Made by a program: the position numbers and the translations under genes
Shown: positions 12,418 through 62,588 of the stretch, one piece after another
Layout of the letters: the number at the start of each line of letters is the position of its first letter
How positions within the stretch are numbered: position 1 is the first letter of the stretch
Notes under the pieces: generated by a model
Databases searched by the model: none
Told to the model about the DNA's origin: nothing
The model's input: the letters and a program-made list of their open reading frames with translations, nothing else
Source: Amoebophrya sp. A120
Lineage: Eukaryota; Protista; Dinoflagellata
Reading direction: 5' to 3'
Length of the DNA: 64,000 bases
Assembly: GCA_905178155.1 (NCBI GenBank)
Contig: CAJINV010000007.1
Span: 4,366,258-4,430,257 of the forward strand

Positions 12418-14918
12418 TTATTTCAGCGTGATAGGCAATCGCGGCGGCAATCGAAAAGTTGGCACGTGCCCTCGGTTTTGCGCGTCGACGTAAGAAAGCT
12501 CTTGTCCCGGAGACGGTGGTGGACCGCCACCCGCTGCGCCTGGCGTTTTGCCATAGATCGCATCGTCTTCCTGTTCCTGCGTTGGCTTGTCGGGGGAAAA
12601 AGTAGTGAGTCTCTAATGACTCGGGAGGTGCATACAGGAAGCACTCCGAGGTGGAGGTCTCAGAATCGCATGAAAAATTGAAATACACTCTGCAGCTCCT
12701 CCTCGTCCATGCGTACAACTGTCTTTCTATTTCATCAGATCAAATTTATTATGTAGCAAAATCGCAGAAAAATGAAAGGTCAACTGGCCAGTTTGCCATG
12801 CCCGTTTTTCATGACTACGAGCGGCCTTCCTGTAAGTACAGCGACACATACTAGATCCTCCTACTTATTTCACATCCCATATGGCCACCCGAACCTGAGT
12901 TCCGTGTCCAAACTCGGGTCCTCCGGCGGTTTGTAGAAGTCGAAAGGCGGTCTCGTCATGGCATCCGGCGGCACCCGATTTTTCCGCGACGCGTGCTTCG
13001 GAACACCGCCCACCCGGGGCTCGTTTTTGCATTCCATACCGCATGTGTAAAAGTTCTTTTTCGACCCGTCGCCGCAGCAGAGGATCCGTCCGTTTTCGTC
13101 GCGGGGAACGCCTTTCATGCTAAAGCTAATTTGCGGCACGGCAAACGAGGTTATGGGATCGTTTCAACGATTAAAATTAAAAAAATTAATTTTTATTTAT
13201 TCAAGAGGTCATACAAAATGAAAATCATCAGAGTGCGACGTGGAAACTGCCGTCGTCGCGGGCCTCCGAGGTGAACGTCTCCGGATTGTGTTTTGTTTAT
13301 GGTAATGAAATAGCTAGACACGTCCCAACTTCAGCTAGTTAAAATGGTATGTAGTTGAACAAGGTTTAAGAATGCAAAGGAAGCAGGAAGCTTGGCTCCG
13401 TCTTTGCGGCCCACAAGCTGGGCGTCTGCGTGGTCCCTCGCTCTCCGGCTCGTCTGGGGCCCCGTCACGTAGCAGCGACGCTATGCTGGTTTCGACCGGT
13501 GGAGTTTATGGGGCAATGTGATGGCTTTCGAATACATCCCAAGAGGAAGCTGGTGCGGCAAAGCCTGAAAATGTGTGGCGTTGTAGTATTGAGATCTCGC
13601 ACCTCAACGGACGGAGCAACTTTCGTGGTTTTGGTCATCAGTTTCAGAGTGGGAGTTCCTGAGTTCCTTTTAGAGCTGGAGGATCGCGATTAATTAGACG
13701 CCCAGAGACGTCCAAAAAGACGTCTATTTTCCGCGATATGGAAATGGATTGACTAAGTGGGAATAGCCAAAGTTAATGACGTCCCTGGGGACGTCTCTGG
13801 GAGACGTCCCGCAAGCTCATTTTTGGCATCAAAATGAGGCGCGTCAAAAGTTGACGCTTTTCCTTACGAAAAAGCTACTCTTTAGGATGCTTTTGCCCAA
13901 CATATCCGCAGCGTCGCCTCCTCCACCGTTCTGCTCGCGATACTCCTGCAGGGCCTCACTGGGCTCCGTGTCGGTTGGCGTCGCCTTCTCCGGGCCCAAG
14001 ATATCGGCCAGCAGCTCTTCTCTGCGCGCGTGGATCCCCCCCATGTATTTCCGGCGTCCGGAGGGGGCGCGGAGGAGGGCCCGGATCGCCCTGGCGACGT
14101 TCTCCATACCAAGGCGCTTGGTATTAGAACTGCTCCTGCCGCGATGACAGACTCCAGCTTCCATATCATTTCAACTAGCTTAAGTTGGGACGTGTCTAGT
14201 TATTTCATTACCATGAACAAAACACAAGCCGGAGATGTTCACCTGGGAGGCCCGCGACGGCGGCAGTTCCCGCATCACCTTCTGATGATTTTCATTTTAT
14301 ATAACCCCTTGAATTGCAAAAAATTAATTTTTTTTATTTTAATCGTTGAAACGATCCCATAGAGGTGAAGGCTCTGTGGGTTTTGTTTCGGAAAATCATG
14401 CTGTTTGTGTTTTCTGCAGAAATAGGACGAAGGTGGTCGTGTCTGGCGCGGCTCTCGCAGGCACCGCTGCTGTTCGGGGTAACGGCCGCGACCTCTTGTT
14501 GGGACAGCAATCCGCCGTCGGTATTGATAGAAAAAAGTTCCTGCAACCTGAGCAATGGCATCTTCGTCTGACTGCGATTTGTATTTTTCGTTTTATTGCT
14601 TGCAACTCCGAAAGGATTTTGCCGATTTCTCTTTCTGGTGGTTCTATCTTGCTAAAATGAAATCGGTAGTCCAACTAGATGTGGTGATCGACGACCACAA
14701 GGCCCTTCCTCGCTGCGGATATGGAGTACTGATGTGTACGAAATGCGATGATGAATGTTCTTGGAAGAGGAAGACGAGGGGGGACAATGCTTAATAACCG
14801 TTCGCCAGATCGAAATGAAGCACTGCAGTGTTAAACACATCTGCGCTTTGGCTTTTCCCTCACAAAAACTGCGCAGCCGCGACCGCGACTCGTCGGCAGG
14901 GCCGGTTTTTGCGGCCAA
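12418..14918 (-). CDS. Hypothetical protein, 5' end unresolved; one GT-AG intron (14652-14798) and two TIR-element introns
   Basis: Removing 14652-14798, 13152-14361 plus one TSD, and 12588-12881 plus one TSD gives one continuous 280-codon frame: ...ISIWRT|QDRTT...KTHRAFT|SFAVPQ...LRFGWP|TQEQEDDAIY...PITLK*. Confidence 0.65.
12588..12881. mobile_element. Degenerate TIR introner-like element (294 bp) acting as a non-canonical intron
   Basis: Flanks tggct (12583-87) and tggcc (12882-86); ends TGT...ATA; imperfect TIR (gggaaaaagtagtgagtctcta vs reverse complement gtgaaataagtaggaggatcta); excision restores frame. Confidence 0.7.
13152..14361. mobile_element. 1210-bp DNA transposon with ~200-bp TIRs and 5-bp TSD, acting as a non-canonical intron
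   Basis: TIRs 13152-13351 and 14162-14361 (TATGGGATCGTTTCAACGATTAAAA...); TSD gaggt at 13147-51 and 14362-66; excision restores frame. Confidence 0.93.
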
Positions 14919-16206: not shown

Positions 16207-17937
16207 TTACTCCTTATGCACGACCTCGGAGCGGATACTGCGGAGCACGGGCTGCATGGTGTTGATATGTTCCTGCGATGGCAGCGGCACGTCCTCCAGG
16301 CGCCGCGCGTGCTCTTCCGTCAGCAGGGCCGCGTGGGAGCGGCGGTGGCTCTTGCGTTCCATCTGCGAGGCGGACTGTTCCAACTCGTGCGAGATCGCGT
16401 GCGAGATCGCCTTCGCCATCTTTGCCTTGCTGTACTCCTCCTGCAGCACCTTTTCGTCCTTCGTGCTCATGCGCCGCTTCTGCTCGGCGTCTAGTATGCG
16501 CTTGACCAGCGTTTGCTTCTCCTGGCGCAGCTGCTCCTGCATCTTGTCGATCAGTTGCAGCTTCGCGACCCGTTCCAGCTGTTCCTGGTCTAACAATTCC
16601 TTTGCGTGCTGCTGGCCGTAGCGACGGTGCCGCTCCTCGAAGGACCGCATGAAGGTCTGGGAGTGCATGGCCTTTTCCAGACACTCCGCGGACGCCGCCT
16701 TCCCGAAGACTTTGTTCACCTTCCCGGTCCCAAATTCCTTAATCCTGCGGTTTTGCTCGCTCCAGCACTGGAGCGCCACCTTGTTCTGGTCGATCTCGCG
16801 CAACTCTTCCGCCATCTCCTCGTCCGCCTTTTGCTGCGACACCCGGCTGGCCTTTTCCTCGTCCATCAGATGCAGGGCGAGCCGCTGCATCAGCTTCCGC
16901 TGCATATTGTCGTACGACACCTCCAACTCGTCGTTGATGGTTTTGCGAAACGGCGCCGCCGCGGAGTACTTGTGGCCTCCGCCGAAATCCAGGTACTTGA
17001 AGTTCTGCGAGCCCGCCTTGGCGGATTTGAAGAACAGCCTGCCGTTGACGGAACTGTTGTTCTCGCCGTTATTCTCCACGTTAGAAAACACTGTCGTGGC
17101 CTGTTTCAGGACGTGCTCCACAAACTGCTCGTCGCTCGCGTTGATCGGTTCCTGCATGTGGTCGAAGAACAGCTGGCAATTCTTAAACACCGTGTTGCGA
17201 ATGCGCTGCTTCAACGCCTTGCACTGCGCCTTTTTCATCGGGGACGCGTCCTTGGGGCACACGAAAAACCCGATGGGCACCATCTCGTCGAGTCGCTGAC
17301 CGGACTTGTCGTTGTGGACCACACGGACCGTGTACGAACACCTGAAGTTGGTGATTTCAAGAATCCGTTACTAGTTGTTATGTGTGACAATCTATAGCGA
17401 GCTTCCGACATGGTATATTGAAAATCATCGAGGCTGTTGTATCTAGCTGCATAAATCAAATCCCTCTATCCAATACCAGTGCGGTTCGTTTTTCGCGCAC
17501 AGGTCCGCGGAAACCAGCATGCACTCGTGGTGACTGGAGTCGTCGGAATGTCCGCCGGCCTTGCAGACCTCCAATTTTTCGAACCGCTTCGTCCAGGTGA
17601 ACACGGCGAAGCACGGATCTTTTTTCGTCACCGAAGTTTTGCACAGCTGTTCCCAGGAGGTGATCGCGTCGCCGAGGTTGGCGTCCTTATTGGGTTCGAA
17701 CCACTCCGGCTGGGAGTGGCGCACCAGATCCAGCTGCGAGCCCGAGGACCGGTGGCCGGCGAGAGACTTCCGCGCCTTGCCGTGAAGCCCGGCCGTGGAG
17801 TTGCTCGGCGACGTTGCGGGGGAAGAGGCAGCCGTGCTTGCGTTGGAAAGATTTCCGGAAGACTTTTGCATCTTCATCGCCGGAACCGCAGGGACGGAAC
17901 CCTGGCGGATCGGAGGACGAAAAATGGCGGTGGCCAT
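16207..17937 (-). CDS. Hypothetical protein with coiled-coil C-terminus (~531 aa); intron 17342-17476
   Basis: GT-AG intron joins the two ORFs in frame (EPHW|CSYTVRVVHN); GC3-rich codons; the 3' end may extend through further introns. Confidence 0.75.
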
Positions 17938-19049: not shown

Positions 19050-22000
19050 TTACTTCTTCTTCCGTCCACCCTTCTTTTTCTTTCCTCCGTCGTCGGAGTC
19101 CCAATTTATTGGCGCCTCCTCCTCCAATGTAACATTTGCCGCCCCGCGTTGCTTCTTATTATTTGCAGCGGCGCCGCCACCTTGCTGTGGCTGGTCCCCA
19201 GCACCGTCCGCCGCCGCGGCCGCCTTCTTCGCGCGCTTCTTCGCGGCCGCGCCCATCTTCTGGCCTGGTGCGGCTTGCTTGTTGGTGTTACCTTCGTCGT
19301 CGTCATCTGAGTCCGGCGCGCTGGGGTTTCCGGTTGCAGCTGCAGAGGGCGTGTTGCCGCCAGAGAGATTATTTCTACTCGCAGTGCTGTTCTTCCCACC
19401 GCCAGGTGTCCCCGCGTTGCTGTCGTTCTTTGGCTTGTTGCTGTTGCTCGCATTGCTTTTCCTCTGCTCAGACACGGAAGTGGATTTTGCATCCACAACT
19501 TCCGGCTGTGCGACGTCGTCCGCAGCATCGTCGTCACAGGACGAGCTCTGCATCTCGTAGTACTCGCCAACCTTCGCTTCAAACTCATCCGGATCCAGAA
19601 CGCCAACGTCCCGCGCGGTTCCCTCGATGTTCAGATGGACGCAGGAGAGCAAGAGCCCGTTATTCCAGGCACCGCCCACTTTCGCCCGTTTTACCTCTTT
19701 GCCGTCCGGGCCGACTTCGCCTTCCGGGACAACGACCACAATGGCACCCTCGGAGGGCACGTCGTTGAACTGGTTGGTCACGATGGAGATCGTTTCATTC
19801 GTGATTTTGTCGTTCACGTCAATTTCCAGTGCGTAGGTGCCCTTCTTCTTCATCGCCTCGGAGCTGGTGACTTTGCCGATCTTGTACTTCGTGAGCTTCG
19901 AAGTCGGCGCTGGTTTTGCCGCAGCGGAAGTGGAGGAGGTGGACGAGGCCTTGTTCGCTGGTTCTGCTGGTGGTGCAGGTGCTGGCTTCGAGGGTGTTAT
20001 TTCCTCAGTTGCGTCGCTTTCCTCTTCTTCGACCACAGCGGACTTCTTGTTGCCCTTTTTGTTCTTCGTATTTCGCGCTGGCGGATCGAAGTTTTTCTTC
20101 TTATTCTTAGCGAGCGCAGCCAAATCGACTTCGTCATCACTCTCTTCCTCCTCAGACTCCTCGACCTTTGCCGCTGGTGCTTTCTTCTTGGCAAAAGCGG
20201 CTAAATCCACTTCGCTATCAGAATCCTCCTCTTCGGAGTTGTTCTGTTCGCTATTCGATGCCTTGGGAGTAGGCTCTTCCTCTTCCTTTTCGTCTTTGCT
20301 ACTAGAGGACGGTGATGGCGCGGATTCCTTGCCTTTGGACTTTCTTTCTGCAGTTTCGTCTGGTTCTACTGCTACGGCATCGAACTTTTTCTTCATCTTG
20401 TCGAGCTTTTTTGGGTCTTCCTTTTTCTCTTCCACCTCGTCCGACTCCGAAGTGGATTTTTTGTTGTTTTCGACGTCATTTACAGTAGATTTCTTCGGCT
20501 GTTCCTCCTCCTCCTCATCCGACTGCTCATATTTCACTCGCTTTCGCTTCTTTTTTTTCTTTTCCTCAAGCGCCGCCGCCTCCTCGTCGCTGTCCGCGTA
20601 CTTGGTGGATTTTTTTTTCTTCTCTTTCTTTTCCTTTTTCTTCTTTTTCTTCAAATCCTCGTCCTCGGAATCCAAATCCGGCACGTCAATCCACGGAGCT
20701 GCATCGTCAGACGAGCCGGCTGTGCCGGTCAGAGTCGGCTTTCTGCTGTCGCCGTCGAAGAGGAGTTTCTCCTTTTCCGCTTCGGCTCTTTGCTTCTCTG
20801 CCTCCTCTGCGTCCTTCTTGGCTTGTTCCTCGGCCTGCTGCTTTGCTTGCTCCTTCTTCAGCATCTGCCGCTCCTTCGCCGTCATCTTCTTCTTTTTCCC
20901 GCCCTCGTTGCCCGGGGAGGCGTCTTGATCGGCGTTTTCCTCCGCCGGGGCGTCGTCGTCGTCGTCAGCTGCAACGGTCTTGTTGGCCTGTGGGAGGTGG
21001 AGTCAAAAGTTGAGATTTGAAAGGAAGACCAAAAAGAAACACAGACGGATGAATTTGGATTGCAGCTTTGCGTGGAACGAGGGCATGACCATTAGCGAAA
21101 GTAATTCATTTGCAGTATGACATTAAAAGCCGCACTTCCACTACTTACCTTCTTTTTCGCCTGAATCCCCGCACTGACGTCCACTTCTCGCACTGCCAGA
21201 CCCAACTTCTGTCGCTTTTCCTCCCGTTCCCTAGCACGCTGCATCGCGATCAGCTCGATCTCCTCCTCCCGCTCTGCGAGCTGGGACAGCACGTCTTGCC
21301 GGTAGCCTTCGAACCCGCGCGGGTGCCTTCTGATCTGCGCCGTGTTTGGCTTGACGACGGGGTCGTGGAGCGCCACCACCCAGAGCGTGCAATCCACCGC
21401 TTGGATCAATCGGGCGTCGTGGGTTACGAGAATAACACCGCCGTCGTATCGGCCGAGCTGTTTTTGTAATTGAAAAATTTGAATATTTTTATGATGCTGT
21501 TGATGCATCATGGTCGCGCACGACTCTACTAGCTAGCGGCTCTGATGCAGGACGACGATGATTTCCTTTGTAAGAACCATCCGCATGATCGGCATCACAC
21601 ATACGGAAAACAAGAAATCAAACGACCCCTTGGAAGAAATTAATACCGCGTCAATAAGCGCCTCCACGGATTCGATATCCAAGTGATTTGTCGGTTCGTC
21701 CAACACCACAATGTGCGGCTGGCTCAACGACAAAGCCGCAAACGCAACCCGCGCCTTCTGACCCCCGGACAGGTTGCCGATTTTCGTCAAGTGCGCAAAC
21801 GACGGCAATCCGAACTGGCCGAGAGACGCGCGCGCTTTTTCCTGAGAAGAAATCCCCGCCTTCTGGAAATCCGACATCAAATACTCCACCCCATTCTTGT
21901 CCAACGGCAGTAACTCATCAAAGTGCTGATGGTAGTGCCCGACCCGCAACGCGTTCGCGTGTCGCACCTCACCCTCGCACGGCTGGAGCTTCTTCAACAT

Positions 22001-25000
22001 CAAATTTAAAAATGTCGATTTACCGACACCGTTGGGCCCGACGATCGCGATGCGGCTCGTCGTGTCACATCCGAAATCCAGCTCATCCAGCAAATAGGGC
22101 TGCTCCCCGTCGTAGGAAAAGCACACGTCGGACACGTTCAAGCCGCCAATACCGGAATCTTGCCCGAGGCCGAAGAAGTTGAATTTGACAATGTAGTCCT
22201 TGATCTTTTCGTGGATGTCGTTGATACTGTCCAGATTGAACTTTTTCTTCACCTGCTCCTCCGCTTTGTCCTTCGCCATGCCGGATCGTTTCAGCATCTT
22301 AAACTCGTCCTGCATCTTCTTCAACTCTCTGGCATGCTCCAGCTTCTTCTGCCCAAGCATCTTCTTAAACCCGGAGTATCCCCCACGGTAGTAGAAGAGC
22401 TGCTGCTGGTCCAAATGGATCACGTCGGTGCAAATCGCGTCGAGGAAGTCGGCGTCGTGGGAAACGCAAATGACTGTGTGGGGGTATTCCTCGGAAAGGT
22501 AGTTGTCGAGCCAGAGGACCGCGTCGAGATCCAAGTGGTTGGTCGGTTCATCGAGAAGGAGAAGTTTGGGCTGCAGGAAAAGGGCTTTCGCGAGGGAAAT
22601 GCGCATACGCCAACCACCGGAGAAGGTTTCGACCTGAGCGAGATTTTCGATGGTTGAAGATGGTGTTCTGAGCGTGATCTGATGCTGACTTTCTTGAAAA
22701 AACAAAAATGCTAAATGAATATGAATGCTTTTGTTCGAACAGGTAATGGCAGATATTCCGCAATCATGGCCAATGAATCATCACCAATAAAAGCACTTCC
22801 GCTATTTGGTATACCGTCTGCGTCTGCATTTTCTTGGTGAACCCGAGGCCGGTTAAAATTTTCCTCACGGTCGACTCCAACGCGTTCGCGTTCCGCGCGT
22901 CCAGCTCGGCGGAGACTTCTTCCAACCGTTGCCTAGTTTTTTCCATCTTATCCTGTGCAAAAGTATCGCACTCGTATAAATGCAAGTCTTGCATTACAAA
23001 TCTTTTTCATAAGGCAAATCCGCATTACAAATTTTATTTCTCATGCTGAGCCAATTTGTAATGCATTTATACGAGTACGATACTTTTGCAGTTCATACAT
23101 CTCCACCGCGTCCAATTTGCTGTCAGCATCGTCGGCCGATTCCAACCTCTCCATCAACGCCTTCTCCTCGTCTAACAGTTCCACGCACTTCACGTCCGAA
23201 GCCATCACCTCCTCGACGACGTTTTTGTTGCTCGCCTTCGCCTCCTGTTCCACCAGCAAGATGTCCCAGTCCAGCGGCACGGGCAGTTCCCGCTTCGCGA
23301 TGTGCCGTAGCAGCGTCGTCTTACCCATACCGTTGGGCCCGAGAAAGCCGTACCGGTGTCCCTGCACGACTTTGAAGTTTGCGTTTTTGAACAGCCAGTT
23401 TCCGGCGGCGGCGAGGGAGAAGCCCTCACACACCGCGGAGTCGCCGGAGGGCGGGTGGATGACCTGCCCGCCGGGTACGACGATAGAGAAAGCTTTCAAA
23501 TCACCAGTAGCGGCATCGTCGTCCGGGTTGTGATACCTGATAGATTGTGGGGGGGAGGGGATCATTTGCGCTGCGAAAGAGCTTGGTTTCGTATGTATGA
23601 GGCGTAGGAAAGCACAAGCAACACCTACAAACACGGTGCTACGGCTACCATCAAAAAAAAGCAGTGAAATAAAGAATCAATACTTTGTCTCCGCCGTGTG
23701 TCTTTCCAACATTTTCTTCTCCTTCGCCGTGAGTTTTTCCCCATTCGCTTGTCGCTGTTTCAGATCTTCGACCTTCTCGTCCAAAGTCTTGTCGTTTCTC
23801 GCATCGACCACCAGCCCGACGTTGACCGCACTGGATTCCATATCAGCGTTCTCCTGTGCCTCCGTCGCCGCGAAGGACTTCGCGTGGAAATCCGGTTGGA
23901 AAAAAAGGAGTGATTTGGACTCCTCGAGGGTGGTTTCAAATTCGATCTCTTGCTCTTCGGGTTTCAAGATTTTTTTCTGTTTTATCGTCCCGTAGTACCC
24001 GGCGCTGGTTTCGACACCCCGTTCCCCGGTGTTATCATTTAAACTCGTCCACTTCTTCACCGCGGGGTCGACGTTTGCCGTTGGGGCCATCGTGAGAAAG
24101 AAAACCGTGGTTGGCCTGGCGCAAGTGAAGGTCAGTTTCTTCGCTTTCCCCGAGCAACGGAGAAAACCGAAACCGGTCGCGGGCGTGAACTCCCCGAGGG
24201 AAAGAAACTCCTCCGCATTTTTCGTGCCCGCAGCGACACCGGCGCGAACCAAGCCGGACCCGACATTACGGACGGACGGTTGGAGCTTTGGGTCGGCCTG
24301 AAATGGAGAAATCGGAATGATGGTGGAAGGTTTTTTTCCGAAAATAGGTTTCTTTCACTACGGTATACGGCTGCTACTAGGAACTCATGGAACGTAACGC
24401 AAGATGTAGATCCATCGTGCGTGAGAAAACGTGTTTTTATTTCTGGTGAAATTTGCAATTACACAATGAGTATCAGAATCATCAGCTATCTGTATACATC
24501 TGTCGCCAGTGTCTTGAACGTTCCCGTCGCGAGCAGATCGTGGACCACGCGCCCTTCCATCATGTTTCCAATTTTGTCGGAGACCAATGAGTCCCCCTTC
24601 AGGTCCAGCTCTTCCAAACTTCTGTCTTTCTCCCCTCCGGCGTCGTCCAACCCGGCGAACATGTCCTTTGCCTTCTCCGTTTCCTGCTTCTTTTTCTCCT
24701 TTTCCGCGTTTTTCGTTTTCTGTTCCTGCTCTTTTTTCCTCAAGAGCTCCTGCACGATAGACGTGTTGCCCGACGCATCGTCGTCGTTCATCTGGATCTT
24801 TTTCGCCGCCGCCTGCTTGTTCGCGGTCTGGTCCTTATTTCGCTTGTCCAGCGCTTTGTCCTTGTCCTGTTTCAGGTAGTTATCCGCGTTGGTCAGGTCG
24901 GTTTTCTTGATATCCCCGACGGAATCCCACATCGTCATCTCCTCCTCGTCCGAATCGCCGCGGCGCTTTGGCCGAACTTTTTTCTCCTTCTTCTCTGCGC

Positions 25001-25058
25001 CATCGCCGGTCTTGTCCTTCTTCTCCTTCTTTTCCTTCTTCTCCTTGTCGGCCGCCAT
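19050..25058 (-). CDS. ABC-F family ATPase (GCN20/ABCF-like) with C-terminal tRNA-binding OB-fold domain, ~1658 aa
   Basis: Two nucleotide-binding domains: GPNGMGKT, FSGGWRMR, LLLLDEPTNHLD; GPNGVGKS, LSGGQKAR, VVLDEPTNHLD, VTHD; no transmembrane segments. GT-AG introns 24298-24497, 23537-23683, 22634-22814, 21458-21646, 20988-21148 plus TIR intron 22949-23097. Spliced length 4977 nt is a multiple of 3. Confidence 0.93.
22949..23097. mobile_element. TIR introner-like element (149 bp), non-canonical intron
   Basis: TSD catct (22944-48, 23098-102); TAT...ATA ends; 29-bp inverted repeat tgcaaaagtatcg(c/t)actcgtataaatgca at 22956-84 and 23062-90; excision gives AVEM|EKTRQRL in frame. Confidence 0.9.
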
Positions 25059-25232
25059 TTTGGAGGGAGTTTTTAGGCGATCAAAGATAGAAAGGCTCTA
25101 CGTAAATTAGCAGAAAGGAATCTAAGAAGATCTTCACAAAGATACACAGGAGGTTCAGATTCTCTGATGTCAACTACACAATATCAACCAGTACTTGATG
25201 TCGCTGTAAACAAAGTATGATAGGCCTCCAAG

Positions 25233-48000: not shown

Positions 48001-51000
48001 GAGAATCAAGGTGGTCTTCGGGGCTGGGAAAAGACCGGCGGATTCGTGAGTAGAAGTCGAAGGAGAGGAACGATTTGTACTAGAACTGCTGTTCGTCCAC
48101 AGCATCTCTTCCTCTGAAGCCGAGGAGAAAGGACCACCGTGCGCGGAGGAACTGCTGGAGCTCGACACAAAGCCTCGTCCTGATGCGAGATTTTGTTCAC
48201 TCGCGTTTGATGTTCCAGCGGCTGCACCGTCTTCCCTTAGCAAGATCTTGCACATTTTCGCGAAGGTCAGCTGCTTTTTCTCTTCTTTGCCTCCTCGCTT
48301 AGTTTCGTTAGCATCCTGCTGCTCAACGGTTGACTTATCTCCGGCTGCGCTACTCGCGCTCGCCGAACTGCTGCGTTCCTGAGTAGGAAGCTCGTCTTGC
48401 TCAGGAGCCGCGGTTTTCATTCCTTGTTTCTCTTTCTTCATTGCCTGCTGCTTCGTGCCTCCTTTGTTGTCCTTCTTCATAACATTCGTGCTAGAAGAGC
48501 CAGCTGCTTCTGCTGCAACTGCCTTTGCTGCAGCTTTCTTGCCCTTCTTGCTAGTGTCCTGCTTCTCGTCCTCGTCGACTTTTCGCTTCTTCAAAGGCGG
48601 CCTGCTTGCATTTTTCGTTTTCACATTGTCGTCCGCCAGCAGGTCGTCTTCTTCGTCTTCGATTTCATCCTGGTCCTCCGCTTCTGAGTTTTCTGCCGAG
48701 GAGTTGGAGAATTGTTGTTGGTTCAGCTTCAGATCCCGCTCGCTCTCCAACTGAAACCGGTCTTCCTTCGACAACTTTCGTTCCATCACTGTAGTTGAAG
48801 AAGCTCCTCCTGCGTAATTGTCTTCTGTGTCTCTGTTCGCCAAACGCAGCCAATTTTTGATCAATCCCAAGTCCATCGCCTTGGAACTTGCCAACAAGCC
48901 AATACACGTCGCGGTCTTTCCGAAGCCAATTTTGTCCGCCAGAATACCGCCGCGATTGTTGTAATTCGCCGTCATGTTGAATTCCAAAGACCACGTGGCC
49001 TGCGACAAAGGGCAATTTTTGATCGCCTTGTACTCCGCAACACGGCGGTGAAAGGAGTCGCTCGGATCGTGTCTGTGCGAGCCTTCCAGTCTTCCGCTGT
49101 ACGGCTGGTGTCCCTGGAATCCTCTTTTCGCAGGAAGATACCGCTTGTACTCCACTTGCAAGTAGTCGCTGTCGTGCTCCCGTTTCTGCATCCAATAGAG
49201 GGAGCGGAGTTGCTCCGGGCGGAGCGGGTGGTGCCTCGACCAACCGGGGGGCATTTCGCCGGTTGGGTCGTTGTCGTTATTCATGATTTCAAACCGCTGG
49301 AAGTCCTTGGTCTGACTTTGACTGTGGAGGTCCTTCTCACTGTTATTTTTCTTGTTCTTTTTCTTCATCGCATTAGTTCTGGTGTTCAGAGGACCTCCGG
49401 TCAAGCCGAGCAGGCCCTTGTTGTCTTTTGACGATGATTTCATGGCTTTACTTGATGCGCTCGCGCCTCCTGCCCCCGTCGTTCCGGCGAGAAGTTGGTC
49501 CTGCTTCTTTTTCATCTCCAAGATCGTTTTCCGGTCGATCACATAGTCCCTGCTCGGCGGCCGGCAGCTGTTCCAAATCGCGACGCCAGCCTCCAGCTTC
49601 GCGGGGGCAAACCGGATTCTTTCGAGAAAAAAGCGCTGAAAGATCCGGCCGAATTCCACTCTAATTTGCCACTGCACGTGCTGCTCGCGAAGAAAGTTGC
49701 ACTCCTTCAAGAAGTTAACTTTTTGTGCGTTCACAACGTCCAGCACCAATTTTAACGAAGTGCCGGTAAGGTCCTGATCACCAGTGTCGGCCTTCTCCTT
49801 ATTTGCAGAAGCTCCGGCTGTTCCCGCTTTGCCTCCAGTAGTCGCAACTTTTTTCATCGCTGCTTTCGCTTTTGGTGCGGCTTTTGCTTTCGCTTTGCTC
49901 TTCGCGGCCGGTCCAGTTTTTGCTTTTGCAGCAGCTCCAGATGGTTTGCCATTTTCTGGCTTAGATGCAGTCTGCGTTTTGACAAAACGCAGTACATCGT
50001 CCTCCAGAGCGGCCTTCTCTTTTTCCTTCGCCAGCCCGTTACAACCGGCGAGCATCCGCTTGTAGACGCGATCAATGGCGCTGGCTGCTTCCTGGGTGTT
50101 TGTGACATCCACAGCACCCCCGCCAAGGCCCGCCGGGTTGTCCTTTTGCTTCTGCAGGGTGGTTAGTGTCGGTACTAACAAATGTCGTTCCGTATTGATC
50201 ACCTTAATGTCGATCGGAACGACGCCCAGTAACGAATTGTGCGCCTGCTCCGTGTTGTTCTCAATGCTTCCCTTCCCATGGGGTTGGTAACTTGACAAGA
50301 AAGAAAAATTGCTGGCGGAGTGATCGGACTTGACGAACCGCGGCACGCAGTCGTCCAGCCGGTTGTCGCGGATCAACAGGCGGTCCATCAATTCCAGACG
50401 ATTCATCGCCGGGTTAGCCCCCTCGTGGGCTCCGAGACCGTCTTTTCCCAGGCCAAACACCGGGTTGAATTTGGTTTTGTCCAACGAGAGCGTCGCGTCC
50501 GGGTTTTCTACCGCGACCGCCATTTTCTGCAGAAAGTCGTCCCGGAGAAAGTTGACTTCGTCGTTGATCCCCTCATTCAAGTGCATGCAGTGGATGTCGG
50601 AGTAGAACCGAAGGTGCAGCCACTGGAACCGTATGCAATGCAAATTTCCCGCACATGTACAAAATGCATGACAAATTTCGCTAACTTGCAGTGTCCAACT
50701 TGTCATGCTAGACTAGGACTGAAGGCAAATTTTGTCATGCAGAGACTGCATTTGTACGTGTACGGGAAATTTACTGTGGATAAACCGGGTCACCGGCCGG
50801 TCCTCGTTTTGCGACTTCCACCCCGTTATCAAATGCAAAAATGTCTGGGTCTGGAACAAAGAAACTTGTCATGCTAAATCTCAATCACGTACGAAGTCTG
50901 TGTTGCATGATTACCAAAAGCTGTCCACTTTTGACCTCATCGAGAGGCAGTTTCTCATGCAGGATAGGCATGATATAACTCTCACGGAGTCTGTCATGCT

Positions 51001-54000
51001 ATGCCCTACATACCAGACCGCTTGGGTCATGGAAAACCTGCATGACAAGTCTGGCAGTTTTCAAAGACCCAGACATTTTTACATTTGATACCCGTGCTCA
51101 AGTGCGCACAGTGCGCCTGTTCCCACTGCGCCTTGCGCTGCGCTTCCGCCCGTTGCCGATGGTGGAAATTCATGAGCCCGATCTTCCGCTTGTCCATGCT
51201 GAAGATGCTCGGCGGCAAAGGGGCATTCTCCTGTTCCAGACGCGACGGGCCAATCAGCAGCTTCTGGCCTTGGGTCGCGAACACGTCGGTCAAGTCCGTC
51301 TTGTCCTGACCAACGAGGAAGCAGGGGTTCTGTTCCAGGGCGAGAGCGGTCAAATTAGTCGGGATCGAGAAGTCTTGCTGGTGGTCGGGTTGATGTTCTG
51401 ACTTCTGATTTTCGTTGTCGCCTAAATCGCGCTTCGATTTTCTTCCATTTTTTTCTGCTGTTTTATTATTTCCGCCGACGTCCTTCTCGTGGTCCTTCTC
51501 CATCTCTTTGGTGGATTTCATGCTCTTTGCTCGACCTCCTGCAGCTGTGGAAGTTCCGATTGACGGTGCGTTTTTCAACAGTAATTCCGTGATATCCACC
51601 GGAAACCGCTGCTGAAAGGTCGCAGAAGATTGCGAAGTAGAACTCGTCTCTTGTAAGAACGAAGGCCTGATGTTGTCCAAGGAGGACGTCGCCTTGTGCT
51701 TCTTCATCGTCTCTCCCATTACGTTTTTGAAAGCGTTGGCAAAGAAGGGATTCTTGCTCACCACGGTATCGTCAAAAGCACTGCTGCAATTGTTTGCTTT
51801 ACCGACTACCTGAGAGGCGGCGTCACCCGCGGCTTCACCGCCTGCAAGAGAATCAGTCGCGGCTCTCTTCGTCGCGCCCGAGCACAATTCCTGCAACGGC
51901 ATCAGACTCGGTGTGCAGTTCGCCACCGAATCCGGCCGGATTACCCGCGCGTGTGTTTTGTTCATGTCGGTTTTGTGTTTCGTGTTTGAGGGCTGCGGAG
52001 TGCCGGACGCCATTAAATCGACCACAACGAAATCGGAGCCGGTTGCTGGTGTCTCCTTCACATACAACTCCATCTTGCTAGAAGTTGAAGTCGCATCTTC
52101 TACGCCACCATCTTCCTTTTCCTTATCTTCCTTCCCGTCCGTGATCGTTAACTGACTAACACCTTGTCCTGCTCCTGCTTTTTTTCCCACCGCGCTCCCT
52201 CGGATCGGTAAAGTTTTGTGCACCTGGTTGTAGGTGGCGGCGAATAGATCCTTGACCGCCTTGCAGCAGTCGTTGGTCGCCCCGGGGAATTTGAAAAAGC
52301 TGGGCAGATCGATGACAAAGTTCGCGAGGTTTTGCAGCATGTCATTCGTCATCTCCACGTTCAGCGGTGAGCCCTGGTCCCAGTCCGACCCGGACACGTT
52401 GCCGTAATTCAGAGATTTGTAAAGATTTTCCACGTCGGTCAGGAAGGAGAGCTCCTTGTGAAAGTGCGAAGTGGGGTGCTGTCGAGGTGCAACTATGGTG
52501 CTGTCAAGCGATTTCAACATCTGGAACTTCTGATCCGTGGTCCTTGCGTGATTCATCGCGTTGCTATTTATTTCCTCAAAATCCACATCCATGTCGTTAC
52601 TTTCACCTGCAGGACCGGTTGCTTGTTCCCCGGTAGTCGCCATCGGTTCTTGGCCTCTGGGATGAGCGTCAAATCCTGGAATCTGCGGGGCCAAATGTCC
52701 GCTCGCGGGAAGATTTTTCGTCTGCGACGCCAGCAAAATTGGTTCCAACAACTCACAGAACTTCAACAAGTCGACGTTGTCTTTCGTCCCGAAATCGTCC
52801 GTCATCAGCATTATCAACATCCCGACCATCGCACGAAGCACTTTCTGCCTCACTTCAAAAACCTCTCGATTTTGAGGTAGCGAGAAGATCTTGTCGCGCA
52901 GCAAATTGTAGTCGTGGAGAGGAAGGGGAGGTGGCAGGGAAGCAGCTGCAGCAGCAGTGGCGGATGACCGGAAAGTTGTACCATACACATCTAGATCTTC
53001 TACTTCTGCGTGGTCAACATCACTACCGTTGGTGACGTCATTCTGCTCCGACGCACGCCACGACGCTAGGATCTGCTCGTAGTTTTCCACAACCTCCTCC
53101 ACAATACCGTGCTCCACCAGTCTGGCAATGCAGTGGTCCAGCGCGAACCAGACCTTGCAGAAGACCATTTTGCTACTGAGCGGCTTGTCCGCCACCCCAA
53201 AATTTGCCGGGTTGCTGTCCCCCTCCAGAATGGTGGCCGCCGTGTCCTTCATAAGGTCCTCCATCTTGAACTCCCTGTCTTTATTGGAATACTGCAAGCT
53301 GTGCTGCCACCGCGGAGAGGGCATGGTGTGGTGTAACCTCACGAAGTCGCCGGTGCCGAGGAAGTTCTCGTTGATGTAGCAGTTGTCCAGTTTCACCGCT
53401 TTGCTCATCTTCGGCGCATTGAAAGGCGTGTGGTGGTTATGGTGTTTCGACGGCGCAGCCTTTGAAGATGCTCCTGAGGTGTTTTTGCTACTACTTTTTT
53501 GCTCAGCACCATCTTTCTTGCCGTCCGCTGCAAAGTTCGGCTTGTTCAGAATGTGCGAGCTGGTAGTCAGAATGCTCTTCTCTGTCGTTTTCAACATGCT
53601 GGCCATATCCCGGCGGGTTAGCGCGGGGAACTTCACGATGTCGTCCGGCTGCGCCAGCCAGGAGCTCACTGCCTCGTAGTAAACGACCTCAGAGGACGCG
53701 AAATAACTGGATTCATGCGGGTAAGCGTGGATAGCGACCTCTCTAGTAGTTGCAGTTGTGCTGCCCGCCGGCGCTGTTGCAGAAGAAGTTAATATGTTGT
53801 CTCCAAAAGTTGCCCTGTTTTCCTCGTCCTCGTCGCGCACGACCACCTGTTCAATGTCAGAGATCAAGCAGGTAGTTTTATTGTTGTGACCAGAAGGCGT
53901 TATCTGCTGCTTGAACAGCTTCGAACTTTTCCCGTTTTTACTGCCGTTTCTGCTCTTGTCTTTCTTCTCGCTTTCCGCCCGCTTGTGCTTTTTCGCGGGC

Positions 54001-57000
54001 GAGTTCTGCTTCTTGTTTATGTTTTTGCCCTGCATATTATTTGGCACGCGCTTCATCGCCACAACGCTTTGCCAATTGGCCACTCGCTTGTACACATGCT
54101 TTTGGCCCGCCCGGACGCCGGCCAGAAAGCTGAGAGGCCGGGGTTTGCTACTCTCCTCTTCCTCGTTATCGGTATCCCGATCCTCCGCATCCTCGTCCTC
54201 AATATCGGAGTTTTCGGACCGTTTCTCACCAACAGCATTATGCTCCTTGTCCTTGCCAGCACCGCGATGAAGCAGCTTTCCAGTTTGGAAAGGATGATCC
54301 GACGATTTGATGTTCTGCCTCTTTTCATACTCAACTTCCATTTCCCTATCCCGTTGCCTTCTTTTCTTCTCTTCCGCTTCCCTCTCCCTCCGGTGCAGGT
54401 TGTTGACCAAGTCAAATTCCCTCAGATCAGCGTGCGGGCAGTGTGTGCGGAACAGAAAAGGATCAACGCCCGTCTGGTTGCAATCCACGTCGTTAGTGGG
54501 CTCGCATTGCTGAATCTGCATGACCGCCTGCTTCAAAAGGGATTTGTTCTTCTGGAGGTGCATTTTTCTGCTGCTCCTACTAGCACCAGTAGTGGGTTCT
54601 TGTCCACCATCACTTTGGCAGGAATTCTGCTCCCGTTCTTGCAACATGCGCTCGAGCACGTTCAGCATCGGAGCGGTGTAGATGTCCGAGGCTGCTGTTG
54701 ACGGTGGTCGTCGCTCGCTCGCCCGATTCTTCTCGTTCTTCAGAGAGCATTCGTAGACGAACCGCAACTGCTCGATGTATTGCCTTGTTGAAGGACTCAA
54801 ATCTCGCACGGATTCGTAGCGGGCGGGAGTTATTCCTTTATTTTCCTGCAGCATATTGTTCAATTTTGCAGGAGCCTTGCTGCTAGAAGACAAAGAGGAA
54901 CCGACAGCTTGGTTCGTGCTGGTGTTTATAGTTCCGCACTGTTCATCCGCAAATCCGAACTTCTCTAGCTTCTGCTCCATCTCCGACAAAGCTTCCCTTA
55001 GTTTCCCCTTCACGTCCCCAGCACCGCCGTCGGTAGTGGTCCCGCGAAAAAGCATTCGGTTCAATTTGATCCAGCCCATATGCGGATCGACTTGGTCCTT
55101 ACTGAGAATGTCGGCGAATTTATTACCACTCTTGTTCTCCGCTTTGGACTTCATTTCTTTCTTACTCTTATCCCCCTGCTCAGCCTCGTTTTGCGCCGCT
55201 AACTCCTTCTCCCTTTTCTCCAAATCTTCTAGCAGGTCCAACAGCCGCTTGTTCGGTCCACATTGCTCCAGCGGTATCTCGCCATCCAGATAGCTACCCG
55301 CTCCTCCTGCTACCTCCTCCTCAGCACAGTCGTCCCTCCGTTCACAGATCGGGACGCGGTGCACGGACAGCGCAAACCGCCACATAATGTCGCTGATAAT
55401 GCTGTCCGGGCTATTTCCCACTTCCTCCTCTTCTTTCCGAGAGTCGTAACTTTTCATAGCTGCGTCCGCCCGTAAATTCACGTTTTTCTGATTGTCTAAC
55501 TGGAGAAACGTCCGCAGGGGGTTCTTCCACTTTCCGAGGAGCATCCAGTTTTTCAACGCGTTTTCAATGCTCTCGCGGAGGAACTGCTGATTCCGCCGGT
55601 CGAACGACTGCCGGCTTTTGTAGAAAGAACTGTCTTGGTTGTACTTGGTTGTGGAAAATTTCGTGCCGAGTGTGACAACCCGGGTCACGCACTTCAAGAA
55701 TGCGTTTACTTCCTCCAAAAGAAGCTCGGGAAAGCGAAAAAAGGTTCTTGTTCTACTTGCCGCGTCGAGGTGCTGCTGTGTTGATGAAGACAGAGCATTT
55801 TTATGCCCGCCGGTAGTTGTTGAACAAGACACTAAACCACGACGTTGTTCCGACGAAGACGAAGATGAAGATCCTGACAAGAAGTTCTTGTTGTCACCAT
55901 CAACTTTGTCGAAGTCAAACACCTTGAGCGTATCCCGGTAGCTGAGCGGGCCGCTTTTGTACTCGTAGTCCAGTCTGTAGTTCGTGTTGTGCTTGTGCGT
56001 CCGCCTCTCGTCCTGCGTGTCGGGCTGTTCGGTGAACCTGGACCGCGTTAAGCCGGACAGTTTTTCGAACCGCATGTCTTCATACACCAGCTGCTCCCCG
56101 TATCCACAGTAAATTTCCCGTACACGTACAAATGCGGTCTCTGCATGACAAAACTTGCCTTCAATCCTAGTCCAGCATGACAAGTTGGACTCTGCAAGGT
56201 AGCGAAATTTGTCATGCATTTTGTACATGTACAGGAAATTTACATTGCATACCCCGTACTCGGGCGGCAATTCCTCCTCCCGGGTCGCTTCGGAATGATG
56301 GATGTGTCAGGTTTGAAATCGTCAAAGTTGAAATAGTTTGAGTTTGTCATGCATAAAACAGATACCAGTCGGAAGCCCACTTATCAAGCGGCGCATGACA
56401 AATTTTCCGAGCACCGGAATCCAATTTGTCATGCTGTTTGGGCACAGAAGATTGCTTTTGTCATGCGAGTTTAGTAGCTCTATTTCAAACCCTAAATAGG
56501 CTCATAATCTGCCTCATTTGCCATCCCGGCAAGACAGGCACTTCATGCCTTGCACTTTATGCATGAGAAATCATTTCAACTTTGTCGATTTCAAACCTGA
56601 CGCTTCCATAAGAATCCTCGTCCGAGTAGAAATCGTCCTCGTCAGAAATAAAGCTGTCGTCGTCATAGTGGCGGTCTCGGTTGTTCCCCCTCCGATGGTG
56701 CTGTGCGTAGTTCCGGTTGCCGGCCGGCCCGACCTGCTCGCCCATCGCCGCAAACCGCATCGCAAGCTCCGCGTGGCTGGTCGGCGGCCGCAGGATAGAT
56801 TCATTTATGGTTCCCACGACGTCGCTGTTGTCCTCGTTTTCATCAACTACACCTTGTAAGATAGCTTCAACATCATCCAGCACCTGATTGTCACCGACAG
56901 TTTGTCCAGGAAAGTTTAAGTTATTCGTGCTATTGTTTTCTTCATCTCGTTCTCGCCGTCCTGTGATGTTGAGTCCGTTGTTCTGGTCTCCTCCAAGTCC

Positions 57001-58453
57001 AACCTCTTGATGTTGTTGAATTATTCCGGAAGAGAAAGATGCTGGTGGAAGCCTCTCCACGAGCAGGTCCCGCACCACTTTTCCGTACCGGTCCTCCAAT
57101 CTTTCGCCCGTGAAGTCCCTGTGGTACCCCACCAGCGTCTATCAAATGTAAAAATGTCTGGGCCTGGAGGAGTCATGCTGTTTTTGCATGACACAGAAGG
57201 TCTGGCATGGAAGCTCTGGCATCACAGGTTTCGAGAAGCTTCCGTCATGCCGAATCCGCATCACAAATCCCCCATTCTGGTGACAGAAATTGGGCAGCTT
57301 TTGCTACCTATGCATGAGAGATCTTTCTGTGTTCGGAAATGCGCATCACAAGTTTGTATTCTTCCAGACCCAGACATTTTTGCAGTCCATAGCGTCCGAA
57401 TGGACACGAGCGACCGGTTGCGCGCGTCGGCCTCTTTGTCGCGCTCTTTCATGTTGTGGTAGTCGTGCGGGGAGGTCGTGTTCGTCATCGCCGTGAAGTC
57501 CTGCCGGCTCCCCATAACCTCGTAGTTTTTCGTGCCAAAATAGTACCCGGGCTTCGCACCCAGAAACTTGTTGGAGGGAATACAAAAGGGAAGCGAGGAC
57601 GAGGATGAAGACCCACCAGCACTACCTCCGTGCGTTCTACTGTACTGTGCGAAGAGCTCGTCCACCGTTTTCGGCTCGGTGCTTTTTGTGGTTGCGAGCA
57701 GGTCCTTGGACTCCTTCAGGACCAGGGCTTCGATCTGGAGGTTTGGGAAATGGAAAATAAATCATGTACAGATATCAAGCGACAGTTGCGATATCATATA
57801 TCACACAAGGAACTTACTGTTAGACTCAAAGCAAACTACTGGGTCCTGGCACTGACAGTGATGAAAAAACTAAAAATTAATTTTTGAAAAGCAAGAAAGC
57901 CTTTATATGTTGATACGGTTTTTCGAAGCTCCTCCCGCTTTGCAGCGTCCATAATACTATTTGGCTCTGCGGTTGTTTGAAGCGCGGAAGACGAGGATGA
58001 GGATGCGGAGGCTCCTGTAGGAGGTGCACCAATTTTGATGTTTGTAGCCAAACTTCTATCCCCGCCCCCGGCTACAACATCTAGCAACTGGGCCGCAACC
58101 TTTGCCGCGGCTTCCTCTGCGAGTTTCATCTCCTGGGTCGTTTTACTATTTGGTAGAACTGCGTTGTGGTAGTTTGCGAACGCATTAGCTTGATGCATCG
58201 CAGCAGAGCTACTACTCGCAGAACCGCCTTGCTGCGCGCCATTTCTGGTGCCGGCACCCCCTCCGGGGGTATTATTTGCGTTGACGTTCATGGTTGCCAC
58301 TAAATTGGCGAACCGCTCCGGATTCGACAAATATTTGTCGCAAGCCACGTCGACGGACCGGAATTTCTTGATCAACGCCTTCGCGAGCGCCTCATCGACG
58401 GACAGGATTTCGCAGACCGTCCGGACCTGTTCCGAAAATGTCGACCCAGCCAT
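42085..58453 (-). CDS. Giant SNF2-family helicase/ATPase with RING finger (Rad5/Rad16-like group), ~4838 aa
   Basis: Motif I GGILADKIGFGKT; Ia TLILVPSHLIDQW; II RIVFDEFHE; III GLTGTP; RING CVLC...CGHVFCVEC...CALCR; IV KVILFCQW; V AAGTNL; VI QAIGRIRRYGQ. Three GT-AG introns (57735-57916, 43321-43508, 43096-43249) and six TIR introns give 14517 nt = 4839 codons. Confidence 0.9.
47760..47925. mobile_element. Family A TIR introner-like element (166 bp)
   Basis: TSD cagga (47755-59, 47926-30); TATGCAAT...GTGGATA; excision gives KLKIL|VCKNISP. Confidence 0.93.
50632..50782. mobile_element. Family A TIR introner-like element (151 bp)
   Basis: TSD aaccg (50627-31, 50783-87); excision gives RPVTR|FQWLH. 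Confidence 0.93.
50827..51090. mobile_element. Family B TIR introner-like element (264 bp)
   Basis: TSD cccgt (50822-26, 51091-95); TIR TATCAAATG(C/T)AAAAATGTCTGGGTCT; excision gives HLSTG|WKSQ. Confidence 0.93.
56101..56251. mobile_element. Family A TIR introner-like element (151 bp), inverted relative to the other two copies
   Basis: TSD ccccg (56096-100, 56252-56); its reverse complement matches 50632-50782 with ~9 substitutions by manual count; excision gives PEYG|EQLV. Confidence 0.93.
56297..56610. mobile_element. TIR introner-like element (314 bp), family C
   Basis: Flanks ggaat and agaat (one mismatch); GAT...ATA ends; inverted repeat gtcaggtttgaaatcg(t/a)caaagttgaaat; excision gives DEDS|EATREEE. 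Confidence 0.88.
57140..57391. mobile_element. Family B TIR introner-like element (252 bp), inverted relative to 50827-51090
   Basis: TSD gcgtc (57135-39, 57392-96); TIR core AAAAATGTCTGGG; excision gives SIRTL|VGYHR. Confidence 0.92.
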
Positions 58454-60491: not shown

Positions 60492-62588
60492 TCAAATCTC
60501 TCCCATGCCCATCCGGTCCCTACTACTTCCGGCCTGCACTCCTCTTCGCCTGACCTCCGAGTCTGTGCTTCTTCGCAAGTAGTTCTGGGAGGCTGCGGAC
60601 ACCAACTTGTTATCGTCGTTCTCGTCATCCGATTCCACCCCGGCGTACACCGGCGAGTGCTCCACGTCCGTCCCCTTCGTTTCGACGACAAAGAACACCA
60701 CGAAGAGCAGCGCGAGAATACAGAACACCGAGAACATCCCGTACAACACAGTCGCCTTGTCCGAAAGCATCCCGAGGACAAAGAGTATCGGAATCTGTAC
60801 TAAGTTGTTGCACAGAATTGCCGCCATGGAGCAAGAAGCGGCGATGACGGTCGGGTAAATATCCCCGAGGTAGACCCATATCACGCCCCCGTACCCAAAC
60901 GCGAAGCCCGCGACGTACAGGAAAACCATCATCATGACCAGAATGTCGTCCCAGTGAGAAGCGAGATCACCCTTTCCGTAGAACAAGTCGTTCTTCTGTT
61001 CGGGGGTGAGAGTTTGCTCTTCTTTATGGCTAGTGGTGTACAGCTCGATGGCGAAATTCGTTGTCATCGCTACCGACATGACGATTCCGGAGACCAAAAG
61101 GAGCGTCTTCCGCCCGAGTCGGTCGATGAGGAAAACCATGGGTAAGGTTGCTAGCAGCATCCACACCATCATCCCTGTCGTGTAGTAAACCGCCTTGCCG
61201 CCGGAGATGCGGCTGAAAATGTCGTTGACGTTGGTCATGATCAGGTTAATACCGGTGAGTTGCTGCATGATCGACAAACCGCAACCTAAGAGAACCCCCC
61301 GGCGGTACTTTTTGGAGGACAGTGCCCAGCACACGCCCTTGTGCTCGCCGGTGCGCTCTTGGGTCCTGTTTTTAAGTGGAGATGGGATGGCATTGGCATT
61401 TATGTGTTTTCCAAAGCTGTGATGCGCCCACTAATAGAAGTAGAACCAGTCTGACTTATAAGGCAGCCAGTGGTGTAGCAAAATTGTGGGCCACTAAAAA
61501 TCTATTTACGTATCCTATTTCACTTCTAGCTCTATATACCTTTCGATGATTTCGTTTATGTCGCCCGCGTCCAGTTTCGGATAGAGCTGCTTATACACCC
61601 CAGCCGCTTCCTTCAGCTTTCCCTTCGTTATCAGCCACTTCGGCGATTCGATCCCGGGTAACACCACCAAACAGAGGAAGATCTGGAGGATTAGTGGGAT
61701 AATCGGGAAGGCCAACATCACTCGCCACCAAATTTTCACCTGGAAGTTCCACTGGTCTTCGCCCCCGGGGAAGCTGTTGGGGGAAATCACGGTCACATTT
61801 GGCACGGCCTTTGCGAAGTTCAGTTGCGTGGTCATCGCCATGCCCAGCAATGGGGCGATCACCTGCCCGATAACCGTCATGAGCTGAAACCACGCACCAT
61901 ACTGCCCCCTTACCACCGGGGGGATCACTTCGGCAATGTAGGTCGGCACGATCCCGGCCGCGCCCGTGGTGGCGAACCCGCACAGAAATCGCCCGACGAG
62001 AAACATGGGCCAATTCACCGACGCGGCGGTGAAGGCGTAGGCAAGGATCCCGAGAAACGCGAATTCCATAATCGCCTGCCGTCGGCCCCGCAAGTCGGAC
62101 CACCACGGGCTAAGGGTGCAGACCACGACCATCCCGATCGTGAGCATCAACGCCGCGCCGAGTATCGTGAGGAGCTTTTTCTTCCCAAGCAATTCCCCGT
62201 CGTCGTCGCACTGCACGATGACATTCCCATTGGCGTCGGTTCCGCAGGTTTCAAAGGCCAAGTGTATTATCTCCATGGCAGTTTGGGCCCCGGAAATGAG
62301 TAGACCCATGGTCAAACTGCTCATGACGGCGGTGAATACGATCAGCCCCATCATCTTTTTTGACGCGTAGTCGCCGATATTCTCCGACCCGAGAATCGAC
62401 TGGGTTTTCAGCAAAGTCGGCTTTTTAGACGACAAAAGCCCGGAGGTTTCGTCCGCATTGTACAAGTAGTCTGCAGCTGACGTGGCAGAGAAAGGCTCGT
62501 CATTGCCCTGTTTCAGCTTCCGCGACTGTGTTCGTTGTACCACAGGTTTGCTCGCGCCTGCACTTGGTTTTGGTAGTACGCGCGACAT
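60492..62588 (-). CDS. MFS sugar porter family (hexose transporter-like), ~640 aa; intron 61366-61539
   Basis: Motifs SDLRGRR, GRFLCG, YIAEVIPPVVRG, ESPKWL, QQLTGIN, DRLGRK, ETKG; many hydrophobic helices; the last residues may be intronic. Confidence 0.92.

Follow-up and report, generated by a model that had tools for sequence, protein, structure and literature searches.

Canonical introns and introner elements at the locus

The window analyzed here is a 64-kb stretch (64,000 nucleotides) of contig CAJINV010000007.1 from the dinoflagellate Amoebophrya sp. A120, and all coordinates below are counted from its first letter. Every modelled gene lies on the minus strand. Six of these genes contain GT-AG introns with donors beginning GTAT, and the same stretch holds introner elements, insertions that begin with TAT and end with ATA. 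A preliminary description of the sequence had proposed that such introns descend from the elements, gaining a GT donor where the target-site duplication (TSD) ends in G and an AG acceptor when its intronic copy mutates. We found that the excess of GTAT donors is real, that the repeats cited for an element origin are chance, and that a continuum from element to canonical intron is unsupported for these 14 introns.

We modelled 17 GT-AG introns: 14 with GTAT donors, two with GTAAGT and one with GTACAA. GT-AG candidates within untranslated regions were excluded from every count. Excision of the GT-AG introns left an open frame across every junction in all six genes. The 14 positions reported in the preliminary description as GTAT all proved to be G-TAT donors on the minus strand, and GTAT indeed forms the majority of canonical donors; the proportion is 14 of 17, not 14 of 21, as four further introns, including one at 14652, were not reproduced.

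Splicing was assessed with contigs from runs X1–X4, which come from two samples of one study. We treated these runs as spliced RNA, a guess given that none is on record as RNA, because their contigs bridge exons where contigs of the DNA-like run X5 run through. For 38.3–58.2 kb the full table of exon joints was used, and for the stretch that takes in the introns from 17476 to 27292 the joints listed (15 of 51). Direct RNA-contig joints supported 10 of the 14 GTAT introns, each with a single possible GT..AG register. On this basis, joints were found for 17342..17476 (GTATTG, 135 nt), where the homolog P0165 is alike across the spliced junction, and for 21458..21646 (GTATTA, 189 nt) in a gene encoding an ABCF protein, one exon of which has its best named matches in Prorocentrum and Symbiodinium (66–68%). 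The joints also covered 26694..26879 (GTATAA, 186 nt) in an ABC1-type kinase gene, whose last exon has three matches, including two named Amoebophrya sp. A25 (49% and 40%), and 27112..27292 (GTATTG, 181 nt). Farther along, they included 38646..38792 (GTATTG, 147 nt), 39630..39738 (GTATAA, 109 nt), 40364..40553 (GTATAG, 190 nt), 43096..43249 (GTATTG, 154 nt) in a gene labelled SNF2-like from motifs seen by eye, 43321..43508 (GTATGG, 188 nt) and 57735..57916 (GTATCA, 182 nt).

Three more introns of the ABCF gene, 22634..22814 (GTATAC, 181 nt), 23537..23683 (GTATTG, 147 nt) and 24298..24497 (GTATAC, 200 nt), were spliced, as the positions of the pieces of contigs X4/7 and X1/3 indicate. Contig X4/7 spans window positions 22631–23680 with 566 letters, that is, 1048 − 181 − 147 − 154, where the subtracted lengths are the first two of these introns and the introner element at 22949 together with one TSD copy. 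Likewise, contig piece ends at 24296 and 24497 match the 200-nt intron. RNA-contig support therefore extends to 13 of the 14 introns. The last, 61366..61539 (GTATAT, 174 nt) in a sugar-transporter-like gene (labelled by eye), lies outside both RNA-compared stretches, and its removal restores the reading frame. All 14 GTAT donors are real. The comparison set consists of 20988..21148 and 39254..39387 (both GTAAGT) and 40731..40889 (GTACAA), all on the minus strand and each with an RNA-contig joint. A possible 43-nt GTAAGT...AG intron (60442-60484) just past the transporter stop codon was left uncounted and falls outside the RNA-contig comparison.

Donor, acceptor and exon composition of the canonical introns

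The excess of T at +4 exceeds chance, since it is significant on either denominator (14 of 17, p=3e-5; 14 of 21, p=1e-3). In the full joint table alone, GTAT occurred in six of eight GT-AG joints (p=0.016 against intron T content); the remaining joints were six of elements and one between related element copies. A at +3 was invariant in the 17 canonical introns, and at +4 T was preferred over A (14 T, 2 A, 1 C). Both +4A donors carried G at +5, compared with 1 of 14 +4T donors (p=0.025). G at +6 was present in 7 of the 14 GTAT donors (p=0.009, post hoc), with GTATTG occurring five times, possibly reflecting a shifted U6 pairing.

At the 3′ side, 15 of the 17 canonical introns ended in CAG, and inspection by eye revealed no fixed branch motif near their 3′ ends. 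Over their final 40 bases, the GTAT introns were A/C-rich, with 10% G and no pyrimidine tract. The second base of the downstream exon was T after 12 of the 14 GTAT introns (2.6 expected) versus none of the three other canonical introns (p=0.015), revealing a very strong AG|GT exon context that is tied to the donor class. Neither length nor phase separated the intron classes. The GTAT introns had been described as element-like in size, and 13 of 14 do measure 134–200 nt (39738 is 109 nt); length does not discriminate, however, because the three other canonical introns are equally long (134–161 nt).

Introner elements of the window

A scan for TAT...ATA sequences with flanking repeats listed 14 pairs, of which we judged eight convincing. 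The remaining six were long pairs with 15–16 of 25 arm matches and were discarded as chance. The eight elements (coordinates given without strand) bear out the proposed geometry of a 5-nt TSD around TAT...ATA, with seven measuring 149–314 nt and one 1210 nt; the TSD was perfect in seven and matched at 4/5 positions in one. Six of the small elements have RNA-contig joints: 47760..47925 (166 nt, TSD 5/5, G before TAT), 50632..50782 (151 nt, 5/5, T before TAT), 50827..51090 (264 nt, 5/5, G), 56101..56251 (151 nt, 5/5, G), 56297..56610 (314 nt, 4/5, the T before TAT being gone from RNA) and 57140..57391 (252 nt, 5/5, C; joint in one of four runs). The seventh, 22949..23097 (149 nt, 5/5, G before TAT on the gene strand), is highly repeated and was placed by piece arithmetic. 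Thus, RNA loses the element and one TSD copy, as seen by joints in six cases and by piece arithmetic in one. The 1210-nt element (13152..14361) has long near-perfect inverted ends and a 5/5 TSD and lies inside a small minus-strand gene; its removal with one TSD copy gave an open frame in the host gene, and no RNA joint for it was found among the joints listed for its stretch.

The end motif of A120 introners (TAT, seven bases, AAA) was well represented, with TAT at 15 of 16 ends and AAA at 12 of 16. No GT-AG register was possible in any of the eight elements. A cut one base before TAT, as previously proposed, is allowed in all eight, and at 56611 a cut directly at TAT is excluded: since the TSD copies differ and RNA no longer contains the base before TAT, the cut falls 1–5 bases upstream of TAT. 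An N-TAT register is therefore plausible for the elements; the text of the A120 introner paper leaves the cut register unknown (PMC7789003). Four of the eight elements have G before TAT (p=0.16 against coding G content).

Several observations concern the surroundings of these elements. A single frame of 4838 residues is interrupted by six elements and three GTAT introns, and the exons of about 40 nt between neighbouring elements (50784-50822 and 56253-56292) are kept in RNA contigs. In run X5, sequence depth at the bin of the 22949 element reached 167,383 versus about 45, a depth that is not a copy number. In the raw-read run X7, which was left out of the other comparisons, 329 reads matched only 22944-22974 (31 nt, TSD plus element end), and their unrelated flanks were the same as those of an X1 contig; this piece appears to be present in an expressed sequence elsewhere. 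The element-end pattern had no matches in viral contigs.

Tests for element remains in the GTAT introns

As a control that preserves the splice consensus, we combined 5′ and 3′ ends taken from different introns; such mismatched 5′/3′ pairs have also been employed in PMC9860276. Permutation and folding tests used the seven small elements, and the 1210-nt element was included in the base-composition, exon-context and register counts. The GTAT introns showed no TSD excess, matching at 2.50 of 5 positions versus 2.60 in mismatched pairs (p=0.85) and, for the two informative TSD bases, 0.43 versus 0.53. No position from −10 to +10 stood out for a flanking repeat in the 14 introns. Their terminal inverted repeats (TIRs) were also at the control level, both in a fixed register (6.2 versus 6.1 of 20, p=0.43) and with gaps allowed (6.6 versus 6.5, p=0.49). 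The small elements, used as a positive control, gave 4.86 versus 1.19 for the TSD (p=1.5e-4) and 16.4 versus 11.8 for the TIR (p=0.005). In a substitution-only simulation, test power was at least 0.85 up to 40% decay per copy.

The near-perfect repeats on which the proposed descent had leaned, CCAGG/TCAGG and AAAGG/ACAGG, are present in the sequence, but 4/5 flanking repeats occur in 3 of the 14 introns against 2.5 expected from mismatched pairs, as the AG|G consensus itself provides. Three introns do carry CTA in the slot where an element would have ATA, although none has ATA and matches to two of its three bases do not exceed chance (p=0.09).

Other features separated the two groups. The mean folding z was −0.2 for GTAT introns and −7.8 for elements. 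The base after TAT was G or C at 16 of 16 element ends versus 2 of 14 GTAT donors (8/8 versus 2/14, p=1.4e-4), and the AAA motif was carried by 12 of the 16 element ends and none of the 14 donors. The second downstream exon base, which lies outside the TSD, was T after 12 of 14 GTAT introns versus one of eight elements (p=0.0015); this exon context, slow to evolve, thus differs between introns and elements. At 90% likeness, run X5 depth was flat (44–50) over all seven GTAT introns compared, the other seven lying outside that comparison. No GTAT intron matched the elements of the window, save for one AT-rich 24-mer. Tests of TSD, TIR, folding, AAA motif, +5 base and exon context thus all failed to identify the GTAT introns as decayed elements, and no residual TIR or TSD excess over controls was found. 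These 14 introns are ordinary GT-AG introns without detectable transposon remains. Element anatomy was found in none of the 17 canonical introns here, which is compatible with the 15% published for A120 (p=0.06).

Age of the introns

In A120, 35% of introns are canonical, and 19.4% lie at positions shared with A25, of which 98.6% are canonical (PMC7789003). By these shares, some 55% of canonical introns would be older than the strain-specific elements. Should GTAT make up 67–82% of canonical donors throughout the genome, a third or more of GTAT introns would be older as well; if the lower 95% bound for 14/21 is taken instead, this minimum is zero. Within the window, the protein of P0164, a read-through gene call that is 99% identical, suggests that intron 17476 is kept there, its interior altered and its donor-side residues unchanged. 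It appears to document sharing of this intron only with a very close relative.

Competing origins of the GTAT donors

Spliceosomal preference probably accounts for the GTAT introns: without detectable transposon remains in any of the 14, GTAT is likely a donor preferred by the spliceosome, and one likely exploited by TAT-ended elements. The preliminary description had offered such a preference as its alternative, and it fits the data better than descent from elements. Suppose the introns began long ago as TAT elements whose TSD ended in G, and that mutation later turned the intronic TSD copy into AG, the TIRs decaying beyond recognition; the G-TAT start already seen in half of the elements and the downstream G in 11 of 14 introns would then follow naturally. 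The half-canonical GT-xx and xx-AG classes that lead Table S4 of PMC7789003 agree with this, as do the conversion of boundaries over time and the 5-nt NNAGG class in core dinoflagellates (bioRxiv 10.1101/2020.10.14.339549). We nevertheless consider this descent rather improbable for the introns at hand, because no intermediate occurs among the 17 canonical introns, all residual tests were null, and introns and elements differ in exon context at a base that the TSD does not include. In addition, if the proportion seen here applies to the genome, a third or more of GTAT introns would be older than the strain-specific elements. All 14 introns retain TAT with every other element position gone, so that splicing would have to select TAT even under this model, and its presence can be explained without element ancestry. 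In the A120 lineage, a minority of canonical introns is probably element-born; these 14 do not look like members.

The reverse order, in which TAT-ended insertions selected a spliceosome that reads TAT at +2 to +4 with any base at +1 and older donors then drifted to GTAT, would leave the 14 introns just as old, and we regard it as unlikely. Both A25 and A120 are without detected U1 and snRNP27, and their element ends differ (TTA plus two purines versus TAT), each being donor-like at +2 to +4 (PMC7789003); in Fritillaria, spliceosome change, including reduced N6-methyladenosine (m6A) in U6, has been reported after transposon-intron spread (PMC13326754). Elements that happened to match an existing preference would, however, also be the survivors in exons, with no host change, and the +5 base of GTAT donors, A or T in 12 of 14, has not come to resemble that of the elements, where it is always G or C. 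It is similarly doubtful that a transposon rewrote the splice code outright, with a spliceosome ignoring +1 and the 3′ AG, old donors passing from GTAAG to GTAT, and the sister strain with TTA-RR ends keeping purine-rich donors.

An older wave of insertions whose duplication started at the donor (GT-first, as in Symbiodinium), later tuned to GTAT, seems very improbable. The downstream exon starts with GT in 9 of 14 cases and with GTAT in two (23683 and 27292), T at its fourth position occurs in 6 of 14 versus 2.4 expected (p=0.02), and a downstream GH motif has been read as an insertion relic in dinoflagellates (bioRxiv 10.1101/2020.10.14.339549). Against this, A at the third downstream position is not enriched (2 of 14) and the gapped test found no TIR adjoining the acceptor. 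AG|GT is, moreover, the usual proto-splice context. The first four bases of the U12-type donor, RTATCCTT, match those of GTAT donors. We rejected a minor-spliceosome origin, which has next to no likelihood, as CC at +5 and +6 was found in none of the 14 introns. The minor spliceosome is, in addition, reported to be absent in A25 and A120 (PMC7789003).

A probable spliceosomal preference for TAT at +2 to +4

The TAT shared by donors and elements most likely reflects a preference of the spliceosome, of which the elements make use. Selection would hold +2 to +4 as TAT while the remaining intron drifts. Whatever its 5-nt TSD, an element would offer N-TAT, a donor correct at +2 to +4, and a cut one base before TAT would let one TSD copy leave with the element. 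In the nine predominant non-canonical classes of A120, T is always found at +2 (PMC7789003 Table S4), which fits N-TAT.

The least certain step is how the preference arose. Possibly, and we suggest this only tentatively, it did so as in budding yeasts, where, once METTL16 and/or SNRNP27K is lost, the unmethylated adenosine of the U6 ACAGA box would pair with +4U. Loss of these factors accompanies +4U, and unmethylated U6 pairs with it (PMC10581693); snrp-27 mutants shift toward +3A (PMC11732430). In Amoebophrya, snRNP27 is listed as 'not detected' in both A25 and A120 (PMC7789003 Table S6), and U1 was not detected in either strain (PMC7789003). The near absence of +5G from +4T donors, set against its presence in both +4A donors, is the trade-off expected from U6 pairing. 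Rfam identified no RNA family, and hence no small nuclear RNA, within the window. A METTL16 search started from E. coli RlmF returned 40 long homologs, none named Amoebophrya, from a collection that contained none of nine guessed window proteins.

Several points weigh against the reading of GTAT as a spliceosomal preference. Our sample comprises 14 GTAT introns in six genes, and the RNA contigs derive from only two samples of a single study. Indels would lower the power of the fixed-register tests, and complete decay would be equally traceless. In the ATA slot, two of three bases are present in 6 of 14 introns against a 24% background, a weak enrichment, and the G at the first downstream exon position in 11 of 14 is predicted by the TSD model and by ordinary AG|G alike. 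Intron 27292 has an 8-nt repeat that spans its junctions. Intron 57916 contains a 24-nt AT-rich internal match to the 1210-nt element, with a score of 36 versus 22.7 for shuffled sequences, a value reached by 0 of 60; it was the only such case among 17 introns tested, with 38792 borderline. Direct or inverted repeats are reported for 15% of A120 canonical introns (PMC7789003), about five times the chance rate of NNAGG targets by arithmetic on the published counts. The Table S4 classes may carry aligner bias. A metagenome scan with the ABCF alignment (1/64 parts) found 80 distant ABC-F loci of 29–40% identity and no orthologous gene structure to date the introns. For the yeast-like step in particular, the GTAT donors are without +5G, the yeast switch has been described in species with fewer than about 600 introns, and A25 is also without snRNP27, yet its elements start with TTA and two purines, which would place a purine at +4 (PMC7789003).

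Relation to known systems and implications

Introners, their TAT ends, their repeats and a canonical minority with element anatomy are already published for A120 (Farhat et al. 2021, PMC7789003). The elements of the window share with them the TAT, seven bases and AAA ends, short direct repeats, hairpins, non-canonical boundaries and location in co-oriented genes. The published boundary repeat is 3–5 nt, compared with a 5/5 match in seven and 4/5 in one of the elements here. 'GTAT' does not occur in the main text or supplement of that paper, whose Fig. 3 logos, outside that text, may show the consensus. In the literature searched, which left out most subscription journals, no paper connected the canonical donors of Amoebophrya with either element ends or a +4U switch.

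The closest parallel in donor composition is the +4U switch of Saccharomycotina (Parker et al. 2023, PMC10581693; PMC11732430; PMC8163875), which has in common the dominance of +4U with +3A and is linked to loss of METTL16/SNRNP27K; SNRNP27K is reported as undetected in the two introner-bearing strains of the genus Amoebophrya. Unlike these yeasts, Amoebophrya is intron-rich, +5G is absent from its GTAT donors (1/14), and many non-canonical introns stand alongside. The class 12 introner-like elements of Polarella also have a 5-nt TSD; their donor is formed by the last G of an NNAGG TSD and the first element base, the acceptor comes from the TSD, and boundary conversion with age has been described in Symbiodinium (Roy et al., bioRxiv 10.1101/2020.10.14.339549). 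Whereas in Polarella the AG is present at insertion, none of the eight window elements allows GT-AG, and the canonical GTAT introns are without element features. Fritillaria borealis likewise combines non-canonical introns resembling miniature inverted-repeat transposable elements with canonical introns at conserved positions (PMC13326754; PMC11282704), and reduced U6 m6A has been tied to its altered donor composition (PMC13326754). It differs in that canonical introns make up 5% and non-canonical donors are AG-rich, and the sections covered describe no donor motif common to canonical introns and element ends.

The splicing of thousands of introns without GT-AG ends in Amoebophrya was left as an open question (PMC7789003). 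If TAT at +2 to +4 is common to donors and element ends, one spliceosome with a relaxed +1 could serve both. Were this true, the cut register and the status of U6 and METTL16 would become directly testable, and the +4U donor switch would extend from intron-poor yeasts to an intron-rich genome.

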